A DNA stretch of 64,000 bases from an uncultured Patescibacteria group bacterium (GTDB taxonomy: Bacteria > Patescibacteriota > Minisyncoccia > Phycocordibacterales > UBA918), in assembly GCA_934699595.1 (NCBI GenBank), contig CAKUWT010000003.1:10130-74129 (forward strand), read 5' to 3'. The notes under the pieces are model-generated. The model was not told the DNA's origin, ran no database searches, and saw only the letters and a program-made list of their open reading frames with translations. Position 1 is the first letter of the stretch. Each line of letters begins with the position of its first letter. A program made the translations under genes and the position numbers. This document shows positions 18,210 to 60,681 of the stretch, piece by piece.

Positions 18210-18282
18210 GGCCCTATCGTCTAGTGGTTAGGACGCAAGGTTTTCATCCTTGAAGCCGGAGTTCGATTCTCCGTAGGGTCAC
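18210..18282 (+). tRNA. tRNA-Glu (anticodon UUC)
   Basis: Cloverleaf read by eye: acceptor ggcccta/tagggtc, anticodon stem caagg/ccttg with loop ttTTCat, T-arm cggagTTCGATTctccg. Confidence 0.85.
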
Positions 18283-18408: not shown

Positions 18409-21111
18409 ATGGCTAGTCTCTTAGAAAAAATTGATGTAATCAATGAAAAAATAAACAAGAACATCGCTATCCTCTCAAATAATGAGCGTGGTCTTGCGTC
18501 TCAGGCAATCCTGGACGATCTCCGTGATCTAGTTGAACACACTGCTGTTTTAATTCACGCTGGTCAAGAAGCAGAAATTGGTTTTGATCTAATCAAAGAA
18601 AGTCTTGAACATATACGTGGATTCTCCAAATACAGTTTTCTATACAAGCTACATAGTAGATTGAATTTAGCTATTTCACATTATGAGCCTAATGAAAGTG
18701 ATGCTGAAATGCTAATGCTAGGCTACATGCATAATTTATTTCTTATAAAGAAATTTTATCTTAAAAATTATAATCATCTCATTTTACAAGATTTACGAAA
18801 TTATCCGTTAAATCTAGATCCTGGCTTATCAGATTATTACAAAGCTATAATTGATAAAATAAAAACTTCTAATTATGAAGAAGTAGACAAAGCTGATTTT
18901 TATATTGACCGAGTAAAACCACTGATTATCGACAACGAACTGTATTATGAGGTAACTTTTCGACCCGCAACAAATAATTTTGCAAAGTTTAATAAAACGG
19001 TGGCATATACAAAGCGTAAAATTACAACAAACTACGCACTTAAGCTGACTTTAGCAAAAACTCAAATAGACGTATTTGATACAAAATCACGTGTTCTCAT
19101 TATATTAGACTTTGAGATCTCAATTCGTCCGTGTGAAATACAACACCTGGGAATGATTTTTGATAGAGGTTTTACGTTCAATAGTAGGACGAAAGAATAT
19201 CAAAATCTGATGAGTGCTTTAAAGGTTAGTCAGTTAACATTGCTTGAGGTAGTGACTCTAAATGAGACCAGATTTGAAAAATTTAAAAAATATTTAAGCG
19301 ATGACGCGCGCTCAGTAAAAATATTAGAGGTTCTTGAAAAATGTAGACAAATAATCATAGAAGATTTAAATGGCTCTAATATTTTGAGGTATCTTCTGGC
19401 TAATCTAAATAATGCTGTTCTGAAGAAACAGCTAAACACCGAGAAGTGCAATATACTTTCGGGTATGTTTTTAAAGAATGGCTGTCGAGTATTCGACGAC
19501 ATGCCTTTCTGTTCATCTCTAAATGGACATAATCCAACGAAGCTTTCTTTAATTGATTGTATCTCCCCAGAAAATAGAAAACATGAATTCTTGGCAAGAC
19601 ATATTAATCAAAACGCAAGAACAAAAAAGATTCTCTATACTCCTATTGAAGAGGTGCAGAAAGTTTATAATGTTGATCAAGAGATCGAGGCTTTTAATTC
19701 AAAAATTTGGGAAGGTCACAAGCCCGCTCGTGAATTGAGAACTTACTCCAAGTATATATACAATTATGGAGCCGAGAAAGATTGTCATGACATATTTACT
19801 AAAATCTTAAGTCTTACCGATTCGGGCATTGAAGATTACCAAACACTCATTGATCTGTGGCTTGACCAACAAAGTGACGATGTCATTGATTCGGATCAGA
19901 AGAGACAAGTTCTAAGAGAATTATTTGCAGAAACACACGTTGCGCTCATTTATGGATCGGCGGGTACTGGGAAAACCAAGATGATTGAATATATTGATAA
20001 TGTATTTCAAGCTGAAAATAAAATATTTCTCTCTAACACAAATGCCTCAGTAAACAATCTCAGGGCCCGAATTGGAGAAAGTGATAAGCATACTTTCTCT
20101 ACGGTTTCTTCATATCTACATAATATTGATGAATATGGTGACTCAGAAATACTTTTTATTGATGAATGCAGTACTGTAAGTAATGCAGATTTGTTACAAA
20201 TTCTCAAGCATAAAAAGTTTGAGAAAATTGTCTTAGTGGGAGATGTTTACCAAATAGAATCAATAGATTTTGGAAACTGGTTTTATCTTTGCAAAAACCT
20301 GCTCCCGAAACATTGCATTTTCGAATTAGATGATACACACAGGACTAAAAAAGAAGACTTGAAACTATATTGGTCTGCTGTTCGAAATTCGGATGATAAT
20401 GTACGCGAAATTGCTTCTAGGGGTCATTTCACCAAACCAGTTGATCAATTCATAAAAAACTATGAGGATAAAGAGGATCAGATTGTACTATGTTTAAACT
20501 ATGATGGTTTATATGGAATCAACAATCTAAATAGACTTTTGCAGGAAAAAAATCAAAATACTGCAGTGGACTGGGGTGTTCATAGTTACAAGGTTGGAGA
20601 CCCCATTATTTTTACCGAATCGTCGAGATTTTTTCCCGTTTTATATAACAACTTAAAGGGGCGCATAGCCAAAATTGACGCTAACGGCGATGAAATAACA
20701 TTTGAAATAGTAATTTCTTATTCACCAAATCCGTTTGATGCCCATCGTTGCGGAGTTGAGTTGTTGGAGAACCTGCCAGACGGTAAATCAAAAATTAAAT
20801 TCTCAGTAAATAAACTAGAAAATGTTGATGAGGATTTAGATGATTCTGATAGATTAGTCCCATTTCAGGTTTCGTATGCTACATCTATTCACAAAGCTCA
20901 AGGTCTTGAGTATAAATCTGTAAAACTTGTTTTTGTTGATGAAGTACAAGATATGGTTACTCATAGTATATTTTATACGGCTATAACCAGAGCCAAAGAG
21001 GAACTAGAAATTTATTGGTCTCCTGAAACTGCAGATAAAGTCTATGAGAAAATTAAAACTAATCTAAATAAGCAGGACTCTTATATTTTTAAGAACAAGT
21101 TTAGCTTATAA
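18409..21111 (+). CDS. 900-aa protein: ~500-aa N-terminal domain of unknown function fused to a C-terminal SF1 (RecD/Dda/Pif1-like) helicase
   Basis: Walker A LIYGSAGTGKTKM, Walker B FIDECSTV, LVGDVYQIESID, UvrD_C-like SYATSIHKAQGLEYKSVKLVFVDE..TAITRAKEELEIYW. The gene is markedly AT-rich. Confidence 0.7.
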   Translation: MASLLEKIDVINEKINKNIAILSNNERGLASQAILDDLRDLVEHTAVLIHAGQEAEIGFDLIKESLEHIRGFSKYSFLYKLHSRLNLAISHYEPNESDAEMLMLGYMHNLFLIKKFYLKNYNHLILQDLRNYPLNLDPGLSDYYKAIIDKIKTSNYEEVDKADFYIDRVKPLIIDNELYYEVTFRPATNNFAKFNKTVAYTKRKITTNYALKLTLAKTQIDVFDTKSRVLIILDFEISIRPCEIQHLGMIFDRGFTFNSRTKEYQNLMSALKVSQLTLLEVVTLNETRFEKFKKYLSDDARSVKILEVLEKCRQIIIEDLNGSNILRYLLANLNNAVLKKQLNTEKCNILSGMFLKNGCRVFDDMPFCSSLNGHNPTKLSLIDCISPENRKHEFLARHINQNARTKKILYTPIEEVQKVYNVDQEIEAFNSKIWEGHKPARELRTYSKYIYNYGAEKDCHDIFTKILSLTDSGIEDYQTLIDLWLDQQSDDVIDSDQKRQVLRELFAETHVALIYGSAGTGKTKMIEYIDNVFQAENKIFLSNTNASVNNLRARIGESDKHTFSTVSSYLHNIDEYGDSEILFIDECSTVSNADLLQILKHKKFEKIVLVGDVYQIESIDFGNWFYLCKNLLPKHCIFELDDTHRTKKEDLKLYWSAVRNSDDNVREIASRGHFTKPVDQFIKNYEDKEDQIVLCLNYDGLYGINNLNRLLQEKNQNTAVDWGVHSYKVGDPIIFTESSRFFPVLYNNLKGRIAKIDANGDEITFEIVISYSPNPFDAHRCGVELLENLPDGKSKIKFSVNKLENVDEDLDDSDRLVPFQVSYATSIHKAQGLEYKSVKLVFVDEVQDMVTHSIFYTAITRAKEELEIYWSPETADKVYEKIKTNLNKQDSYIFKNKFSL

Positions 21112-21133: not shown

Positions 21134-22417
21134 TTATTTCTGAGCTGAAATAATCTTGTTTTTTAGAATTAAATTATTCTTAACACAATTCAGAACTGAT
21201 CTTTTCTCCAAAACTGTCCCGTCTCTCAAAACAAATTTGAGATAATTTCTCAGATCTACCTTCTGTATTTCTGCAGTGTTTTCTTTGCCCAGAAACATTG
21301 CTTGAAGTCTCTTGAATTTCTTGATCTCAAGATTTAACTTTTCGGTAAGTTGCATTTCATTAAGATCAAGTGTGCTTGCCATTTTCTGAAACTCTTTGAG
21401 GAGATCGTTTTCATTTATTGCTGGGTTTTTGCACTTTCTATCCTTTGATTTGGCGCAGCGATAATATACATGTCTGTTCACTCCTCCATTTAGCAACTTC
21501 TTAAACTTCTCATCAGCGGTAATTCCCGATCCGCAAACACCGCACTTCATCATTCGAGTAAAAGCAAATTCCTTGCCTTGTGACTTTATAACCTGTGACT
21601 TGATTGAGTTTCTCGTCTCATCGAATAATTCCTTAGTAATCAGTGGCGTATGTTTGCCCTCATACCAAATACCAGCACCTTGCGGAAACTCAAATTTTCC
21701 ATAATAAAACGTATTGTTAATGATCTTGAATACATTCCCGATACTTAAGTGATAACCACGCAAGGTACGGAAGTTTAAATCGTATTTTAGCCATGCGTGT
21801 ACCTTTGAAGCACTCCATTTATCATAGGCAATTTTCTCAAAGATTTGCCGTATAACATCTGCCCGTTCTGGATCAATTTCTACCTCGCATTTGGCTAGTC
21901 GCCCATCAACTTTTCTATAGCCTGTCGGTGGTTGGGCTGGCCACAATCCCATCTCGCACCTTGTTCTCATGCCACGCTTCACATTGATACTTTTGTTATC
22001 GTTCTCTAGCTTTGCTTGAGAACAGAGAATCATAAGGAGAAACTTATCGCTTGGTGAATTAGTGAAGTTCTGCCCGAACGTTTTAATGGTAATGAGCTTC
22101 TTTTGATCCATGCGGTCAACGAGCTTACCCAAATCTCCAGCATTTCGTGATAATCGATCAGGTGCCCACGTGATAATGGCGTTAAAAATACCATTATCAA
22201 TGTCTCGTACAATCTCTTCAAATACTGGTCTTTGACCTGATTCTTTAGCGGAGTGTGACTCTCTCCTAATTTCAACGATAGTAAGCTTTTCTCGCTCGGC
22301 TATTTGTGTCATTTCTTTGATCTGTGAATCAATCGAAAGAGCTTGTTTTTCGTCACCTTCGGTCGACTTACGAGCGTATAAACAATAACGATATTCGCTT
22401 GGTAATACTTCTGTCAT
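21134..22417 (-). CDS. large serine recombinase (resolvase domain + recombinase domain + zinc ribbon)
   Basis: N-terminal YARKSTEGDEKQALSIDSQ (catalytic Ser region), DRLSRN motif, C-terminal CGVCG..YYRC zinc ribbon; 427 aa. Confidence 0.85.
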   Translation of the reverse strand: MTEVLPSEYRYCLYARKSTEGDEKQALSIDSQIKEMTQIAEREKLTIVEIRRESHSAKESGQRPVFEEIVRDIDNGIFNAIITWAPDRLSRNAGDLGKLVDRMDQKKLITIKTFGQNFTNSPSDKFLLMILCSQAKLENDNKSINVKRGMRTRCEMGLWPAQPPTGYRKVDGRLAKCEVEIDPERADVIRQIFEKIAYDKWSASKVHAWLKYDLNFRTLRGYHLSIGNVFKIINNTFYYGKFEFPQGAGIWYEGKHTPLITKELFDETRNSIKSQVIKSQGKEFAFTRMMKCGVCGSGITADEKFKKLLNGGVNRHVYYRCAKSKDRKCKNPAINENDLLKEFQKMASTLDLNEMQLTEKLNLEIKKFKRLQAMFLGKENTAEIQKVDLRNYLKFVLRDGTVLEKRSVLNCVKNNLILKNKIISAQK

Positions 22418-28873: not shown

Positions 28874-31800
28874 TCACCTTCCCCTCAACAATCCCAAGAA
28901 GGCCTGGAGCACAGTAATCAACTCTTGCACCAAGGTCTTATTCTCTTCAGTGACGGTAATCTGAGTGGTGGGAGTAGCTGGTGCCGTTACCGTCTTCTTA
29001 AAGAGATCGGGGAACTTGGCTTCAAGACGAGCTACTTCAGCGGCGTTGCCATTGCTGCGGAGGATATTAACCCGGGAGAGGACAGACATCGTACTAATCT
29101 TTTTCTTGGGGGCGGGTTCGGAGTTATCGGGGACAGCAGAGACTTCTGTCTCAGTATCTGGGTTATCTGGAGTCAGCGGGTTCACAGTGACGGTAACTGT
29201 TTGACTGGCGCCGCCTCCAAGACCAGCACATGTAAGGGTGTAGTTGGTGGTAGTAGCCGGAGTGACCGATTGGGTGCCACTGAGACTCTTGGCACCAGAC
29301 CAGCCGCCAGAAGCGGTACAACTGGTGGCGTCAGCAGTGCTCCAGGATAAGAGAGTACTTTCACCAAAAGACACCTGAGCAGAAGTGGCTGAAAGAGTTA
29401 TTACCGGAGTGTTAGCTGGATTTACCGTCACTGACACCGATTGAATAGTAGTACCACCTGGTCCAGTACAGGTAAGACTGTACATCTCGTTTGTACTAGG
29501 GCTAACAGACTGCGATCCATGCAAACTCTTGGCACCAGACCAGCCGCCAGAAGCGGTACAACTGGTGGCGTCAGCAGTGCTCCAGGATAAGGTGGCGACA
29601 CTACCGTTCGTGATAGTACCTGGGGTGGCGGTAAAGATAATGGCTGGCTCAGGATCGACCGGCACCTCATTCACCGTAACAGTCGCATTAGCGGTCGCAG
29701 TCTTAACCCCATCAGTACAAGTGATGGTGTAATTAGTAGTGGCAGTAGGTGAGACTACTTGGGTGCCACTCTTAGTGGTGTGGCTAGTCCAAGGGGCAGA
29801 ACAACTAGTGACGACGTTGTTAGTACTCCAGGTGAGGGTGGTAGTGTCGCCGTTAGTGATAGTGCTAGGAGTGGCGATAAGGGAGACGGTGGGGTCTGGG
29901 TCTGGAGTGCCGGGGTCTGGGTCTGAGACAGTGAGGGTAACACTTTTGGTATCGGTACCGTCAGTGCCGGTACAAGCCAGGGTGTATGTATAAGTGCCAG
30001 CGGTACTGGGGGTGATGATCTCGGTGCCTGTCGTGGCTTTGGTACCAGACCAGTTACCAGAAGCGGTACAACTGGTGGTGTTGGTGGAGTTCCAGGAGAG
30101 TGTGGTGCTGTCTCCGGTTTCGATGGTGGAGGGGGTGAGGGAGAAAGATACTAGTGGAGCAGCGGGTGCTGGATCAGTAACGGTAATAGTAATCTCTTTA
30201 AAGGTATCGCCTCCAGGACCATAACATTCTAAAGTATAAGCAGTAGTCTCAGTCGGAGTAACAGTCTCTGGACCACCAGACAAGTTACGTGCACCAGACC
30301 AACCGCCAGTAGCCAAACAACTGGTGGTATTGACACTACTCCAAGACAAAGTGGTACTTTGACCCTTTAGAATCGTGCCACTAGCAGCAGTAAAGGTAAT
30401 AGACGGGAAATCAAGTGGATCCAGAGGAGGATTCTCTTCATCCTCAGTTTCAGAGACATCATAGACCTGGAAACCGCCAATGTACCCATCAAATCCAACC
30501 TCACTACCAATCGGATCACCAAAAGCAGGGTCCCAGGACTCCGTTGGTTTTGTCCTTCCGGAAGCAGGCGCAGTAGCTAACAAAACGCCGTCTAAGCTAA
30601 GAGTTAGCTCCCCAGCCACCGAACTATAGGTCACCTTTATTGTGTGCCAGTTATTATCAAGGATATTATTACCTGGAGCCGACACGGAATAAGTGACACC
30701 TTCTTGATTAGTGAAAGAGTGAGAAAGGTTTGAGCCAATTCTAAAATAGGTACTGCTATGCATCCGGAAAGGATTACCTGCTGAGGCGCTGCCGTTGGCA
30801 GCCTTAACATCCATAACCATGGTGTAATTATCTAAATCATAGATTTGGGACACCGCCCCCCGATTAAGCTCCACAGTTGTTGAAGTTGCAGTTATTCTAA
30901 AAGCCCACTTACCATCAATAAACTCTGTTGGCGTTACTGGCAAATTACTAGCGTACGGAGACAGATCGGTAATACCACTCTCAGAAACCCTAATATCTAG
31001 ACGAGAAGATTCTGGCACATAAGCACGACCATACGCAGTGCTGGTAGCCCCTAAACTATCGGTTACTGTTAGGGTTACTTCATAAGTACCAGCCACAGGA
31101 TATTGTCGAGTTACATCTCTACCCAAGGCAGTAGTGCCATCCCCAAAATCCCATTCGTAGTTAGTGCCAGTATCAGGCACCAAACCAGCACTATTAGCTG
31201 TATACTGCCCTGTAAAATGATAAGTATCAGCAGCGCTACTATTTCGATCCACTCGCACAATAGCGGTTAGTTCATCAGGATGGTCGTTAAAGTGTGTTAA
31301 ATTAGCGCCGTACCCCCCGAGAGCAGCCTCTCCTCCCGGCAAGGCCTGTAGAGCCGGGATATCAGAGACAGGCGCGCCAGTCATAGCATTAATAAATAAA
31401 TCATGATAATAACCAGCTGAGAGATATTTTGAATTCTGTACTAGAAGATTGTGGTCTACTACCCAATTATCAGCATCGCCAGGTATGCTAGTAATTGACC
31501 GAGCAATATTATTCTCCACTAAAACATTCATAGACCTGGTAGCCACATAAATAGCTGGTCGGGAAATTTCTCCAGAGAGTGGCTTGTCAACTCCGACATT
31601 ACTTAGTAGAGTGTTGTCCCTAATTACTAATCCGTCTACCTCACCCATGGTAATACCGTGAGAATGACCATTAAAAATGAGGTTATTAATAACAGTAAAG
31701 TCTTTATAAAACATCTCATGCCCACCACCATAACTATCCACCACCTCGTTGCGCATAAAAATAGACTGAGTATGACCACCTGTACCTGAGTACAGAATAT

Positions 31801-32650
31801 TATCTTTAATCGTGACATGTTCGGAAGGGGCGGTAGTACCATTAGTCCAGAACTGAATCATATCTGGATGAGAACCATCAGTCTCATGTCGATGCTGCCA
31901 ACTATGAAAATAATTCCCTTCAATTAAGGTGTCTGTAACCCTAACAAAATTAAAACCGTCTGAACGAATATCGTGAACTTCGTTATTGCGAACAGTCAAG
32001 TCAGTAACGTTACTGTAAACACCAGCACGGTACCAAGTTCGAAATTCATTATTTTCCAAGATTACATGGTCAGTATTACTTATCGATAAACCAATTGCTG
32101 CTCCACGTCCAAATCCCGCAGGAGAAACATCACCGCTGGCATTATCACCTTCAAAAAGAGAATTACGAAAAGTAATATTTTCAGACCTAATTGGGGCCCC
32201 ACCTAAATGTCCCGAATCAACTGAGAATGGCCTATCCTTAGTAAAATTTGGATCACCAGAAAAGGTATATTTAAAAATTAATCCATCAAAGGTCATGTTA
32301 GTTACTCCAGCCAACCCCACCTTGGTAAAACGGGCAGGATTATTCATATCGGCTGAAGTAACTGTTACTTCTCCAGGAAAACGTGAGTAACTCTCGCGAG
32401 CATTGTAAAGCCCTAAAGTGTAATCTCCCGGCTCTAAGGCAATGACATCACCCGGATTAGCAACCGCCAGAGCAGCCATTAATCCTGCATTACTATTAAC
32501 GGTCGTTGTCGCTCCTAAAACTTCACTGCCTAAAAAAGTCTTATAAAATAAACCACCTGCAGACAGGATAAAACCTAACATTAGTATTATCCCAACAATT
32601 TGGTAAATTGATTTTTGTGGGTTTTGTCGCAAAACAGTGACAGTGGACAT
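28874..32650 (-). CDS. large secreted/surface protein: N-terminal anchor, right-handed beta-helix (pectin-lyase fold), PKD domain, lectin/LamG-like region, >=6 tandem Ig-like repeats
   Basis: PbH1-like repeats (NNEVHDIRSDGFNF, NNLIFNGHSHGITM), PKD signature NYEWDFGDGTT..YEVTLTVTD, ~80-aa repeats ..TLSWS..TSC.ASGGWSG..TYTL.C.G.GG. ATG at 32648-32650; the track start at 32677 is a TTG. Confidence 0.8.
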   Translation of the reverse strand: MSTVTVLRQNPQKSIYQIVGIILMLGFILSAGGLFYKTFLGSEVLGATTTVNSNAGLMAALAVANPGDVIALEPGDYTLGLYNARESYSRFPGEVTVTSADMNNPARFTKVGLAGVTNMTFDGLIFKYTFSGDPNFTKDRPFSVDSGHLGGAPIRSENITFRNSLFEGDNASGDVSPAGFGRGAAIGLSISNTDHVILENNEFRTWYRAGVYSNVTDLTVRNNEVHDIRSDGFNFVRVTDTLIEGNYFHSWQHRHETDGSHPDMIQFWTNGTTAPSEHVTIKDNILYSGTGGHTQSIFMRNEVVDSYGGGHEMFYKDFTVINNLIFNGHSHGITMGEVDGLVIRDNTLLSNVGVDKPLSGEISRPAIYVATRSMNVLVENNIARSITSIPGDADNWVVDHNLLVQNSKYLSAGYYHDLFINAMTGAPVSDIPALQALPGGEAALGGYGANLTHFNDHPDELTAIVRVDRNSSAADTYHFTGQYTANSAGLVPDTGTNYEWDFGDGTTALGRDVTRQYPVAGTYEVTLTVTDSLGATSTAYGRAYVPESSRLDIRVSESGITDLSPYASNLPVTPTEFIDGKWAFRITATSTTVELNRGAVSQIYDLDNYTMVMDVKAANGSASAGNPFRMHSSTYFRIGSNLSHSFTNQEGVTYSVSAPGNNILDNNWHTIKVTYSSVAGELTLSLDGVLLATAPASGRTKPTESWDPAFGDPIGSEVGFDGYIGGFQVYDVSETEDEENPPLDPLDFPSITFTAASGTILKGQSTTLSWSSVNTTSCLATGGWSGARNLSGGPETVTPTETTAYTLECYGPGGDTFKEITITVTDPAPAAPLVSFSLTPSTIETGDSTTLSWNSTNTTSCTASGNWSGTKATTGTEIITPSTAGTYTYTLACTGTDGTDTKSVTLTVSDPDPGTPDPDPTVSLIATPSTITNGDTTTLTWSTNNVVTSCSAPWTSHTTKSGTQVVSPTATTNYTITCTDGVKTATANATVTVNEVPVDPEPAIIFTATPGTITNGSVATLSWSTADATSCTASGGWSGAKSLHGSQSVSPSTNEMYSLTCTGPGGTTIQSVSVTVNPANTPVITLSATSAQVSFGESTLLSWSTADATSCTASGGWSGAKSLSGTQSVTPATTTNYTLTCAGLGGGASQTVTVTVNPLTPDNPDTETEVSAVPDNSEPAPKKKISTMSVLSRVNILRSNGNAAEVARLEAKFPDLFKKTVTAPATPTTQITVTEENKTLVQELITVLQAFLGLLRGR
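29284..29350. repeat. 67-bp perfect direct repeat inside the surface-protein gene (second copy 29525..29591), encoding Ig-like repeat units
   Basis: actcttggcaccagaccagccgccagaagcggtacaactggtggcgtcagcagtgctccaggataag occurs twice exactly, 241 bp apart; more diverged copies lie near 30045 and 30290. Confidence 0.85.
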
Positions 32651-32824
32651 GAAAATGAGGGAAATAGATTTTAGCAATAAGTCCTAGACCCAGTAACATT
32701 TTGGTGTCTATTACCTACAATGTTAACAATCCTGTTGATAAAAACTGGAGACACGGTGGATAACTCTACTTGACGAGATAGTTCAACAACACTTGGCTAC
32801 CTTAGCGAGCTTCATTAAAAAATA

Positions 32825-32851: not shown

Positions 32852-32938
32852 GGAAGCGTGGCCGAGCGGCTGAAGGCGCTACCTTGGAAAGGTAGTATGT
32901 GGGTAACTGCATCGTGGGTTCGAATCCCACCGCTTCCG
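32852..32938 (+). tRNA. tRNA-Ser (anticodon GGA), long variable arm
   Basis: Acceptor ggaagcg/cgcttcc, anticodon stem ctacc/ggtag with loop ttGGAaa, long variable arm, T-arm gtgggTTCGAATcccac. Confidence 0.85.
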
Positions 32939-32940
32939 CA

Positions 32941-33133
32941 GTTGGTAACTAACTGCAATTAAGTTATAAAGTATTATCGAGGAAGCTAAACCTTGTTTGA
33001 GCAGAGACTGTTTGGGGAACACTTTCTGAGGATTCGAAAAGCTTTTGCGACGGATTAGGAGTGGCGACAGCCCGAACTAATCCGTCCAAAAGGTGTACTG
33101 AACCTGTAAGGTTCGAATCCCACCGCTTCCGCA
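32941..33133 (+). repeat. tRNA-3'-end-terminated structured element, copy Ser-A (~193 nt), ends with a 24-nt copy of the tRNA-Ser 3' end
   Basis: 3' end ggttcgaatcccaccgcttccgca matches the tRNA-Ser 3' end. Core has degraded hairpin 1 (33003-33029), GAGGATTCGAAAAG (33029-33042) and hairpin 2 ggattag/ctaatcc (33052-33083). Confidence 0.7.
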
Positions 33134-33324
33134 TACTACTTAATAAATATTATTAAGTAACTTAATACTAAAGAGCAAACCAAGCTCTGTTTGGGCAGAA
33201 ACAGTGTGAAGACACTGTTTCTGAGGATTCGAAAAGGTTGCCAGCTATTTTGCGAAGTGGTAGCGAGTAAAAATAGCGACAACCTGTACCAAACTCGTAG
33301 AGTTCGAATCCCACCGCTTCCGCA
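33134..33324 (+). repeat. same element, copy Ser-B (~191 nt), tandem to Ser-A, ends with a 23-nt copy of the tRNA-Ser 3' end
   Basis: Hairpin 1 cagaaacagtg tgaaga cactgtttctg (33196-33223), AGGATTCGAAAAG, hairpin 2 ctatttt/aaaatag (33245-33276), 3' gttcgaatcccaccgcttccgca. Confidence 0.7.
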
Positions 33325-44771: not shown

Positions 44772-44843
44772 GCCCCGGTAGTTCAATGGATAGAACAATT
44801 CCGTCCTAAGGAAAAAATGTGGGTTCGATTCCTGCCCGGGGCA
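44772..44843 (+). tRNA. tRNA-Arg (anticodon CCU)
   Basis: Acceptor gccccgg/ccggggc, anticodon loop gtCCTaa, T-arm gtgggTTCGATTcctgc (two G-U pairs). Confidence 0.8.
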
Positions 44844-45032
44844 CAGTTTGGCAGTAAATATTATTATGCTGTAAGGCTTTATTTTAAAATACTGAATGTT
44901 GTTCGGGTGAAAACAGTCTGGGGGACTGTTTTCGTGAATCGAAGCCTGATTGAGATATTTCTCAGGCGATAGCCGAAAGAAATATCCAATTGGGGTACTG
45001 AAATTGTAAGTTTCGATTCCTGCCCGGGGCAC
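44844..45032 (+). repeat. tRNA-3'-end-terminated structured element, copy Arg (~189 nt), ends with a 21-nt copy of the tRNA-Arg 3' end
   Basis: Hairpin 1 aaaacagtc tgggg gactgtttt (44910-44932), CGTGAATCGAAG, hairpin 2 gatatttc/gaaatatc (44954-44986) with loop ..GGCGATAGCCGAA.., 3' ttcgattcctgcccggggcac (45012-45032). Confidence 0.65.
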
Positions 45033-59523: not shown

Positions 59524-59776
59524 TAATAATATTTACCTACTTATTTTAAATGATATTTATTAATAGTAAAAGAGTACCCACACTTAAGTTGCAAATTCTC
59601 TTAATAGTTGTCTCTTATTATAAAAAATCTCAATCAAACTATAGTTAGTTTTGCGGGACGTTGATCCAAACACAAGTAAAATAGAACTGATCTAGCAATA
59701 TCAGCACACAGAAATAGAATTCGACTTGCTGTGAAAAATTATATGGCTTACTGGTATTATTTAGTAAGTATGTTTA

Positions 59777-59905
59777 CTGCCGGACAGGGATTCGAACTCT
59801 ACGAGTTCAGTACACCTTTTGGACAGATTAGTTCGGCTATCGCCTCCTAATCTGCCTCAAAAGCTTTTCGAATCCTCAAAAACAGTCCCCCAGACTGTTT
59901 TTGCC
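59777..59905 (-). repeat. tRNA-3'-end-terminated structured element, copy Gln (core ~130 nt), ends with a 21-nt near-copy of the tRNA-Gln 3' end
   Basis: Minus strand: hairpin 1 aaaacagtc tgggggg gactgtttt (59868-59891), GAGGATTCGAAAAG, hairpin 2 gattag/ctaatc (59826-59852), 3' gttcgaatccctgtccggcag (59797-59777). About 85% identical to Ser-A over ~100 nt. Confidence 0.65.
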
Positions 59906-60063
59906 CCAATGGAGTCTTGTTTCCTTTAGACGTCTTAGTAACGTAATAAGATTACGTTACATACTCGCTGGCCGTCTCGAGCTAGAACCGTACACGGTCA
60001 AGCTCAGCTTGACCTTTTAACTATTCTTTTGAATCTAAATCAGAAGGGTCTCGTGCGCTTAAT

Positions 60064-60462
60064 TTATTTTGGTACATCAAGTGAATCAATAACGTTAATC
60101 AACCAGTTACCCGTGAGCTTATCTTGCATCTGCTTAATCTGTTCTTTTGTAAACCATTGGAGGTCAAGAATTTCATCCTTTGCATATGCTAATTCGCCAC
60201 TAATTATTTTTCCTAAATAAACGTGTGTTTCTTTTGTTCCAAGAAATGGATTTTCTATTACGGTTAGCTTCTTTACTAGTTCAACATCAAGCCCAGTCTC
60301 TTCTTTTACTTCTCTAACTGCAGCGACCTCTAAATCCTCTACTCCTTCGACTTTACCTTGCTGCCAGTTCCATAAACCATAGATAATTTTTGTAGCCTCC
60401 TGTCCTAAAAGAAACCTTCCGTCTTTTTCAATCAAAACTGCAACTCTGATATCAGTATTCAT
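60064..60462 (-). CDS. NUDIX hydrolase
   Basis: GKVEGVEDLEVAAVREVKEETGLDVE Nudix box; ATG at 60460-60462. Confidence 0.7.
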   Translation of the reverse strand: MNTDIRVAVLIEKDGRFLLGQEATKIIYGLWNWQQGKVEGVEDLEVAAVREVKEETGLDVELVKKLTVIENPFLGTKETHVYLGKIISGELAYAKDEILDLQWFTKEQIKQMQDKLTGNWLINVIDSLDVPK

Positions 60463-60509
60463 ATCCAAAGTATATCAAAAGTAATTAAACTCTTCGTACT
60501 AGCACGAGT

Positions 60510-60583
60510 TGGCTGCCGGACAGGGACTCGAACCCCGATACCCAGGACCAAAACCTGGTGTCCTACCTTTAGACGATCCGGCA
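60510..60583 (-). tRNA. tRNA-Gln (anticodon UUG), CCA encoded
   Basis: Reverse complement: acceptor tgccgga/tccggca, anticodon stem ccagg/cctgg with loop ttTTGgt, T-arm cggggTTCGAGTccctg, 3' gcca. Confidence 0.85.
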
Positions 60584-60595
60584 ATATTCTTAATT

Positions 60596-60644
60596 AGGTA
60601 TTCCCAACGCTGGGAATACCTAAGATGGTGGGATTATAACACAA
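60596..60644 (-). promoter_or_regulatory. extended -10 promoter TGtTATAAT (60634-60644) followed by a 10-bp-stem leader hairpin (60596-60620) upstream of tRNA-Gln
   Basis: Perfect TATAAT with an upstream TG on the minus strand; hairpin ggtattccca gcg ttgggaatacc seen in sequence. Confidence 0.4.
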
Positions 60645-60681
60645 CGAATTGGTTTTCTGAAGTCATTCTCCTCCAGTCCTC

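Follow-up and report, generated by a model that had tools for sequence, protein, structure and literature searches.

Features of the tRNA-Gln locus

A tRNA-Gln gene in a 64,000-nt stretch of DNA from an uncultured Patescibacteria bacterium (contig CAKUWT010000003.1, positions 10,130 to 74,129; hereafter the window) is followed by two small insertions, cassette A with a NUDIX hydrolase gene and the gene-free cassette B, which are probably non-autonomous tRNA-integrating cassettes mobilised in trans and members of a family spread over the candidate phyla radiation (CPR). The tRNA-Gln(UUG) gene itself (60583..60510, minus strand like all genes and core features of this locus) was detected by ARAGORN and by the Rfam tRNA model (56.4 bits), encodes its CCA and is preceded by a sigma70-like promoter at 60661..60633. 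Its part from T54 to G73 (60532..60513), as found by the repeat search, forms the attL-side copy of a direct repeat, whose attR-side copy, GTTCGAATCCCTGTCCGGCAG (59797..59777), starts 736 nt further on, comprises the equivalent of G53 plus T54 to G73, and matches tRNA-Gln 60533..60513 at 20 of 21 positions, leaving one mismatch. Not a single match of equal quality was obtained in 100 dinucleotide shuffles, which places this repeat beyond chance.

The original prediction, made from the letters of this DNA, had described the locus as a tRNA-integrated island that lacks a recombinase and is bounded by attL/attR-type repeats, and the repeat search together with a check of open reading frames (ORFs) bears out this architecture. 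The tRNA-Gln(UUG), the NUDIX gene, the core and the 21-nt repeat all turned up where it had placed them (ARAGORN, Rfam, Pfam and R1, a covariance model introduced below); the 10-bp palindrome gtaacgtaat/attacgttac exists as well, at 59938..59960 and not at 59909..59931. An intact tRNA gene with a far-end direct repeat of its 3' segment, by which Islander-type islands are recognised, is present at tRNA-Gln and likewise in about 100 family members. Neither the ORF list nor Pfam revealed a recombinase ORF within 60509..59777, so the integrase by which such islands are also recognised is missing here; a protein combining Resolvase, Recombinase and zinc-ribbon domains, as expected beside the attachment site of a large serine integrase, is likewise not encoded within the locus, the window's gene of this kind being 38 kb away. 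The notion of an element with no integrase is therefore right for the island and wrong for the window and the family, both of which encode large serine recombinases, although in the family this applies to a few rare members (L134, L132, L133 and L045).

Cassette A (60509..59968) opens right after the tRNA (CAACTC-GTGCTAGTAC...) and closes in a degenerate tRNA-Gln-like end, which the original prediction had overlooked. Its NUDIX hydrolase gene (60462..60064; 132 aa, ATG at 60462, alternative TTG at 60468) was identified by Pfam PF00293 with E=5.8e-17, and the protein also matches the PADLOC defence candidate PDC-S07 (E=2.6e-12). Behind the gene, a reduced core read from the sequence (60036..59990) comprises the anti-T-like segment AGATTCAAAAG, a hairpin GGTCAAGC-TGA-GCTTGACC (60014..59996) and the junction GTGTAC (59995..59990), the P3 hairpin of complete cores being absent; it remains below the R1 threshold, and the identical layout is located ahead of the same fragment in contig L127. 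This fragment, GGTTCTAGCTCGAGACGGCCAG (59989..59968), is a pseudo-fragment, a decayed or variant tRNA-Gln-type 3' end that agrees with the tRNA-Gln 3' region at 16 of 26 positions. Read on the plus strand, this P2-like hairpin (59996..60014) resembles an intrinsic terminator, GGTCAAGC-TCA-GCTTGACC followed by the T-rich tail TTTTAACTAT, in the direction opposite to the NUDIX gene.

Cassette B (59967..59777) reveals the elements hp0, hp1, anti-T, P2, junction, P3 and tRNA fragment in the order and spacing of the Ser-1, Ser-2 and Arg copies of the window and of 61 mini-elements elsewhere. Its left end is formed by hp0, the 10-bp palindrome GTAACGTAAT-CTT-ATTACGTTAC (59960..59938), and equivalent hairpins stand directly after the tRNA in other copies. 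The hairpin hp1 (AAAAACAGTC-TGGGG-GACTGTTTTT, 59902..59878) was seen in minimum free energy (MFE) folds and its equivalent covaries among copies. It is followed by anti-T (GAGGATTCGAA, 59877..59867), which is complementary to the fragment's T-loop and 3' T-stem and, according to covariation, forms helix P1b with them; this segment had gone unnoticed in the original prediction, and it fits the attR-side fragment copy, not tRNA-Gln itself. P2 (59863..59816), also supported by covariation, is a long hairpin whose stem varies and whose tip is a mini-hairpin flanked by GA/GAA (GGCGATAGCC), while the junction GGTGTAC together with P3 (GAACTC-GTA-GAGTTC, 59815..59794) displays the strongest sequence conservation. 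R1 matches this core at 59776..59888 with 82 bits.

Though the repeat-bounded stretch of about 730 bp is real, it is more likely composed of two tandem cassettes, A with NUDIX and B without a gene, than of the single unit originally proposed, because A has a reduced core of its own and is closed by the pseudo-fragment, which accompanies it in L127 and L121 as well, and a complete gene-free element starts 7 nt later. The arrangement parallels two tandem copies found after tRNA-Ser in the same window.

A family of insertions at tRNA genes of Patescibacteria

Elements of this type are present at three of the six tRNA genes of the window. Downstream of tRNA-Ser(GGA) (32852..32939, plus strand), two tandem gene-free copies (32940..33323) each close in GTTCGAATCCCACCGCTTCCGCA, with R1 matches at 33017..33132 and 33212..33323, and downstream of tRNA-Arg(CCU) (44772..44844, plus strand) one gene-free copy occupies 44845..45032 (R1 match at 44922..45032). 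The Ser and Arg copies score 77-87 bits and end with the 3' end of their own tRNA, so that the core adjoins the attR-like repeat in all of them, just as had been predicted; anti-T of the Arg copy, GAATCGAA, fits the T-loop of tRNA-Arg, TTCGATTC. Despite the different tRNAs, the cores in this genome are 69-83% identical.

When the junction motif GTACYRAANNNGTARRKTTCRANTC was searched in one genome of each species, it turned up in at least 117 stretches, almost all of them from Patescibacteria, including Saccharibacteria, Paceibacteria, Nomura-, Taylor-, Kaiser- and Zambryskibacteria; viral contigs gave no match to the two-part core pattern. A complete tRNA gene on the same strand lies directly upstream in about 100 of 122 motif matches, usually 85-150 nt before the junction, and the fragment after the junction is the 3' end of that very tRNA, mostly perfect over 20-22 nt. 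At least 17 tRNA types are concerned (Ile, Cys, Val, Leu, Gly, Gln, Ser, Arg, Glu, Asp, Pro, Tyr, Ala, His, Lys, Trp and Met). The duplicated segment begins at T54, runs to position 73/74 and is usually 20-25 nt long, longer duplications being tandem or truncated tandem copies, and tandem arrays occur in the family. In 705 kb of CPR loci, 133 cores were recognised by R1, a covariance model for which 98 copies had served as input. Most members measure 130-190 bp and carry neither genes nor an integrase, the whole range extending from 0.13 to 4 kb. As read from these genomes, the insertions constitute a family found throughout the CPR, site-specific for T54..73/74 in tRNA genes, mostly gene-free, some with cargo, and stacking in arrays.

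At gathering score, Rfam 15 detected only tRNAs in the whole window, and at E<=10 the best matches to the core regions were at chance level (10-24 bits against cut-offs of 36-150). Full-text literature searches directed at Patescibacteria/CPR in connection with tRNA repeats, structured RNA, integrons, islands and serine recombinases turned up general papers on islands and no description of the element; group I introns within patescibacterial tRNA genes have been described (PMC13011429) and are different from it.

These distribution data contradict an origin without any mobile element, in which the repeat and core would have arisen by local tandem duplication or slippage after tRNAs, or the 21-nt match by chance. 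Some duplications do have variable ends inside the host-specific flank, as this would allow, but no chance matches are expected, one core with its T54 boundary is kept behind at least 17 tRNA types in many CPR classes, the cores of this genome resemble each other on different tRNAs to the degree given above, and a filled/empty pair exists, rendering this explanation extremely improbable.

A second core type, termed Type 2, was observed downstream of several tRNAs (L120:985-1165; L081, L071, L050, L044 and L031). Its left half with hp0, g1 (described below), hp1 and anti-T is unchanged, its right half differs (GAAAGACGGAG...GAGTCGGGGTCGCG...CTTGTGAC|C56), and its R1 score is weak or nil; the right half, for instance in the L120 insert, is homologous to the 3' end of the serine recombinase gene of the type found in L045. 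On the other side of a tRNA gene, at L121:690-800 and also in L120, a copy of the tRNA 5' end (GGAGAGTTGGCTGAGTGG) stands about 105 nt upstream of tRNA-Ser(gct); next come an hp1-like hairpin (AAAGTGCTGGGGGCACTTT) and, just ahead of the tRNA, CACTCAGCCAGCTC, the antisense of its 5' end. This feature may represent a mirror-image element on the tRNA 5' side.

Conserved fold of the core

In the sense of the tRNA, the typical order is hp0, g1, hp1, anti-T, P2, the invariant GTAC junction, P3 and the fragment. Following the tRNA immediately, hp0 is often a hairpin that resembles a bona fide terminator; g1 is the complement of the acceptor 3' strand, and P3 is a small hairpin (GAAnnn-GUA-nnnUUC) using T54-C56 of the fragment. 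In 98 copies, the columns GTAC..AA..GTA..TTC are invariant and P3 covaries; all 16 pairs of P2 display compensatory changes, with 92% of cells paired; and P1b, the helix of anti-T and T-loop, covaries with whichever tRNA is copied (N59 pair: UA 37, CG 31, AU 17; R57 pair: CG 65, UA 23). Over the entire fold, 85% of cells are paired compared to 65% after shuffling, and the covariation score of 0.507 stands against 0.17 for shuffled and 0.08-0.15 for slid controls. Since G.U exceeds A.C in P2 by 73:23, the tRNA-sense strand is probably the strand that folds. A perfect g1 complement of 10-14 nt is found in about one quarter of the copies, its distance to anti-T being fixed as the length of hp1, and complements of at least 8 nt occur in 20% of cognate cases versus 4% of the non-cognate controls. 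In the resulting layout, a - hp0 - a' - spacer - a, g1 has two possible partners, the tRNA end upstream of it, reached across hp0, and the fragment downstream; MFE folds pair the entire 21-nt fragment.

With more than 130 copies and strong covariation, the core is by comparative sequence analysis a well-supported and undescribed structured module. It is no known self-cleaving ribozyme, in spite of a hammerhead-like UGA...GAAA tip, as the motifs of the core do not agree with one and no ribozyme family appeared among the Rfam matches at E<=10. A tRNA-like or tmRNA-like molecule was rejected as well, the T-loop being fully paired with anti-T and the 5' T-stem strand not being conserved. Nor is g1 a native part of CPR tRNA terminators: nearly all complement-bearing tRNAs lacking a canonical core carry a diverged or Type 2 element, and g1 therefore belongs to the elements.

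The fold may act as RNA or as single-stranded DNA; on sequence alone, the two views are equally serious rivals to the double-stranded recombination that we favour below. For single-stranded DNA, the core would be a site like integron attC or that of CTX phage, in which g1 and anti-T, paired with the copied end, form a duplex mimic of the tRNA segment from T-loop to acceptor; a recombinase would swap the double-stranded tRNA gene and this mimic, the tRNA gene thereby corresponding to the integron attI and the cassettes to units of ORF plus attC. The attP1 and attP2 sites of CTX phage are inverted, and attC is arranged R''/L''...L'/R'; the order a - (hp0 or cargo) - a' - spacer of about 75 nt - a would mirror both by analogy. 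The complete pairing of the 21-nt fragment, the covariation of P1b, the perfect g1 complements and the strand bias in P2 (G.T versus A.C in DNA terms) are all consistent with such a site, and so are the loops, often GNA triloops and GCGAAGC mini-hairpins of very high stability in DNA, the tiny, promoter-poor and integrase-less nature of cassettes arrayed at one fixed site, and the bona fide terminator often located between tRNA and core, which argues against strong transcription of the latter. However, no IntI- or Xer-type tyrosine recombinase was found beside any core, and no tyrosine recombinase occurred in the Pfam-scanned ORFs of cargo-bearing loci or among the 25 of 93 window families listed. 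The recombinases seen nearby are all of the serine type, whose substrate is double-stranded DNA; tandem G.A motifs suit RNA too, as do the GNRA tetraloops (GAAA, GTAA), the G.T bias in P1b is weak (62:41), and no source of single-stranded copies is known. We consider a single-stranded site doubtful on balance.

To the same degree doubtful is a structured non-coding RNA with its own function, either a 3' untranslated region of the cargo or a separate small RNA, which might shield the stray tRNA 3' fragment, control the expression of recombinase or cargo, or interact with tRNA-processing enzymes, insertion being ordinary and independent of the fold. Covariation on the sense strand with G.U pairs, GNRA tips and a three-way junction with invariant nucleotides are what such an RNA would show, and cargo is usually transcribed toward the core, as in L134 (HTH, cargo, core; HTH for helix-turn-helix) and in the window, where NUDIX points to the reduced core. 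The z-score-free MFE folds agree across copies, and the fold is kept across CPR classes, suggesting selection beyond a protein-binding site. Yet no Rfam family matches, no promoter was seen between hp0 and core, where a terminator often comes first, and the tandem, decayed and presence/absence-variable copies differ from the stable orthologous positions that a host function predicts.

Another way to account for the antisense segments would be spread through an RNA intermediate, anti-T and g1 resembling a primer-binding site and the copied end stemming from reverse transcription of a tRNA or pre-tRNA. The antisense covers exactly the 3'-terminal 21 nt or so of the tRNA, like retroviral primer-binding sites, the elements are promiscuous across tRNA types, and some duplications run through the tRNA terminator as if the 3' end of a primary transcript had been copied; truncated tandem copies also account for these long duplications. 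A reverse transcriptase was not seen in any locus, the CCA is not part of the copy, and a survey reports no group II introns in Patescibacteria (PMC13011429), which makes this route very unlikely.

The NUDIX cassette and other cargo

The NUDIX protein of cassette A has 153 homologues at E<=1e-5, the closest of which, with 73-95% identity, come from CPR of the Kaiserbacteria/Parcubacteria type. Even at 95% identity, these orthologues are found in unrelated neighbourhoods; their usual setting comprises a core match 100-1500 nt upstream on the same strand or a tRNA-Ser directly ahead. Across contexts, the homology of the NUDIX cassettes starts directly after the end of the tRNA or fragment and ends at ...CTCGAGACGG, and their shared right end, ...GGTTCTARCTCGAGACGG, is a decayed tRNA-Gln-like 3' end preceded by a hairpin and GTGTAC. 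The pseudo-fragment is kept at the right end of the NUDIX cassettes in L121 and L120 and flanks both sides in L127, where NUDIX is 95% identical. L120 and L121 encode an identical NUDIX protein by tRNA-Ser(gct), with a mini-element of about 185 nt between tRNA and NUDIX in L120 alone; bounded by the tRNA-end repeat, it makes the two a natural filled (L120) and empty (L121) pair at tRNA-Ser, and at the tRNA-Gln site contigs L118 and L119 represent the same allele. Judged by these neighbourhoods, NUDIX is itself mobile cargo.

The proposal that cargo can be included is substantiated by these orthologues and equally by the larger members, and the search for cores beside different genes in other genomes, which it had called for, was successful (L049, L042, L017 and L134). 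They carry the Shedu protein SduA plus an ankyrin protein in 3.4 kb (L049), a CBASS set of SMODS/AGS_C and SLATT effector (L042), DUF6671 (L017), and a nucleotidyltransferase with a weak, sub-threshold SprT-like match (L035/L134), to which the recombinase elements described below have to be added. The cargo is located between tRNA and core, or directly upstream of the core where no cognate tRNA was found. In L122, a NUDIX cassette just downstream of a core has AbiTii, RelB and an AriA/PtuA/GajA-like AAA_15 ATPase as neighbours. By annotation, the cargo of the family is defence-island-like and often consists of putative anti-phage defence genes.

HTH and LAGLIDADG-type proteins also recur near cores or recombinase elements, in about 8 of 117 loci (L018, L027, L034, L070, L077, L092, L101, L031; also L133:8604-9614). 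Their genes were considered as the mobilising enzyme and dismissed because of variable distance and orientation; we treat them as cargo or neighbours, and they may also be homing endonucleases or regulators.

Large serine recombinases

Large serine recombinases with Resolvase, Recombinase and Zn_ribbon_recom domains adjoin cores in L045, L029 and L035. The L029 type has more than 7,700 homologues at E<1e-20 among 8,000 candidates scored, and the best 120 of them, from several CPR classes, are all at least 71% identical. In L132, L133 and L134, the recombinase gene lies on the opposite strand with its 3' end overlapping tRNA-Ser(gct), the layout on long contigs being tRNA-Ser(gct), opposite-strand recombinase gene, about 450 nt, a small HTH gene and cargo. 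The recombinase element of L134 spans 4.2 kb from tRNA-Ser to a 77-bit core, which is followed by a tRNA-Ser-like fragment (17 of 20 positions), and provides the att-flanked cassettes A and B, which lack recombination genes, with an autonomous relative that has the same ends. L132 displays a 4.4-kb element that closes in a 16-nt repeat and has no canonical core. All 50 recombinase tails that were read end in ...RxxRD(S/L)N(P/S/L)R..., the antisense translation of the tRNA 3' end and T-loop, with varying acceptor codons, and three of the 50 continue into the antisense of the core junction. A second subfamily (L045) faces the fragment instead.

The length of the C-terminal tail varies among homologues P0121-P0240 because the ORF reads across the attachment site into tRNA antisense. 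Many family members are found on contigs of about 2 kb, as expected for a multi-copy element that breaks assemblies. In three of four long contigs examined (L131, L132 and L134), the recombinase element is located within about 4-6 kb of recG, which suggests a conserved chromosomal neighbourhood, that is, the same tRNA-Ser locus in distant genomes.

The window encodes a large serine recombinase of its own (21137..22417, minus strand; 427 aa; Pfam Resolvase, Recombinase, Zn_ribbon_recom), a candidate trans-acting enzyme that is a distant homologue of the tRNA-Ser-associated protein P0142 (31% identity, E=9e-41). It might act on the cassettes. It is convergent with a 900-aa superfamily 1 helicase (AAA_30/UvrD_C_2; 18409-21108, plus strand) located directly downstream of a tRNA-Glu (18210-18282), and the region looks like an integrated element; no tRNA-Glu 3'-end repeat bounding it was found in the window. 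A recombination-directionality factor was not identified for the recombinase family. Elsewhere in the window and unrelated to the cassettes, an ORF of 1,267 aa (28877-32677, minus strand) contains internal direct repeats of 240-250 nt at 29178-30364 (families D1/D2) and probably encodes a repetitive surface protein.

Proposed mode of insertion

The reading that we favour as the probable one is that cassettes A and B were inserted by a recombinase acting in trans. Insertion would be site-specific into the 3' part of the tRNA (T54 to 73/74), the tRNA staying intact and its 3' end being repeated as a 21-25-nt copy beyond the insert. Later arrivals would land beside the tRNA, and arrays would therefore build up; in the window, the gene-free cassette B would have come first and the NUDIX cassette A later. 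The right-end module of about 110 nt, with its invariant junction and small hairpin (GTAC-YGAA-nnn-GTA-nnn-TTC), would abut the crossover region, the GTAC-P3 block of about 22 nt beside the crossover representing a putative attP half-site of a serine recombinase; upstream of it lies the covarying hp1/P1/P2 fold with the internal antisense pairing to the copied tRNA end. The autonomous relatives carry a large serine recombinase gene running into the tRNA 3' end, and gene-free as well as cargo-only cassettes, A and B among them, may have been moved or laid down in trans by such an enzyme. The idea that the core of about 130 nt is the mobile or recognised unit holds insofar as it is the recognisable unit of the family; as the mobile unit itself it is not borne out, only its last 22 nt or so being at the place expected for an attP half-site.

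Several observations weigh against this mode of insertion. Double-stranded sites of serine recombinases leave a covarying 16-bp hairpin 40-55 nt from the crossover unexplained, and the same is true for hp1, P1 and the internal antisense of the fragment. An attL and attR about 150 bp apart make a poor excision substrate, some duplications reach 40-75 nt into the tRNA's own terminator, for which a simple att model needs truncated tandem copies, and the end of cassette A is far more decayed than that of B, though A should be the younger one. A recombinase homologue was detected by tblastn in only 4 of 118 sequences (117 loci plus the window), one of them being the window's 31%-identical homologue, and most cassettes, including those of the window, are devoid of a recombinase. 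The recombinase elements examined are all located at tRNA-Ser, as opposed to cores at 17 or more tRNA types. In L132, recombinase and repeats are present without a canonical core, which that enzyme therefore does not require, and the L134 fragment differs from the tRNA at 3 of 20 positions, in the acceptor strand, and is therefore not simply a displaced native end.

Two further kinds of insertion were considered and set aside. A target-site duplication of fixed stagger, suggested by the sharp length of 21-22 nt, leaves the tRNA-specific internal antisense and the variant ends of the NUDIX cassettes unexplained; insertion of the HUH/IS200 or casposon type would duplicate about 15 bp or nothing at all, and none of the corresponding genes was seen. 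A broader alternative, tentative and unlikely but slightly more credible than either the attC-like site or the functional RNA taken singly, is that the module is a new folded single-strand recombination or guide element (RNA or DNA), whose antisense would present or recognise the T-loop-to-acceptor segment of the tRNA served; CPR tRNA genes would then be integron-like landing pads capturing tiny integrase-less cassettes, many with defence genes.

Patescibacteria have tiny genomes, and their gene exchange is little understood. If insertion by serine recombinases in trans is correct, much of the accessory and defence repertoire of CPR would be delivered by one family of very small tRNA-stacked cassettes, and an abundant family of unusually conserved serine recombinases would move them. 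The conserved fold provides a simple sequence marker for such islands in metagenomes, and the pair of recombinase and att site may be of practical interest, as tRNA-targeting large serine recombinases are used as genome-integration tools.

Comparison with known systems

tRNA-integrating elements and their non-autonomous derivatives are already known; what is new is the undescribed structured module and its unusually uniform, phylum-wide distribution. A group I intron in the tRNA gene does not apply, since tRNA-Gln is uninterrupted, the element comes after it and no group I family matched in Rfam. The closest concept is that of tDNA islands with a displaced tRNA fragment (Islander; PMC4383910), which likewise insert into the tRNA 3' part, regenerate the tRNA and leave a copy at the far end, form tandem arrays with the newest member beside the tRNA, and include the T-loop sublocation as a known target class. 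In contrast to these islands, most members described here are gene-free and integrase-less at 130-190 bp, their autonomous relatives use a large serine recombinase instead of the usual tyrosine integrase, and the attR-proximal end is provided with a covarying fold and an internal antisense of the fragment.

The cis-mobilizable elements (CIMEs) of streptococcal integrative and conjugative elements and the cargo-only remnants of tycheposons in Prochlorococcus (10.1101/2020.12.28.424599) are similarly att-flanked and recombinase-less, lie next to tRNA genes and bear accessory or defence cargo. For both, mobilisation is presumed to come from a related autonomous element, which acts in trans or in cis. 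To our knowledge, no structured core has been described for either of them, and different from both, one core type serves at least 17 tRNA targets in one phylum here.

Integron cassettes, consisting of an ORF and attC at attI, are also small and mostly promoterless, contain no or one gene, close in an imperfect-palindrome fold and are arrayed at one site with the newest nearest; G|TT marks the boundary of both partners, as in G53-T54-T55. Unlike in integrons, no IntI-type tyrosine recombinase is present beside the site, and the landing site is a tRNA gene, not attI. The boundary G|TTCRANTCC with its C at position 4 does not fit the GTTRRRY of attC, and the fold, unlike attC, forms a three-way junction whose nucleotides are invariant. 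The folded attP of CTX phage, used by XerCD, shares an inverted target copy that, at one end of the element, is separated from the direct copy by about 75-90 nt, and by which a single strand can mimic the chromosomal duplex; there, however, the target is dif and not a tRNA gene, and neither an Xer-type enzyme nor filamentous-phage genes were seen in our elements of 0.13-4 kb.

The large serine integrases of phiC31, Bxb1 and TP901-1, finally, share with the recombinases presented here the Resolvase, Recombinase and Zn_ribbon_recom domains and a gene at the element edge by the att site. In distinction from the phiC31 type, the 3' end of the gene reads across att into tRNA antisense, and the C-terminal tail therefore changes with the integration state; the CPR recombinase family is, moreover, unusually conserved (at least 71% identity among the best 120).

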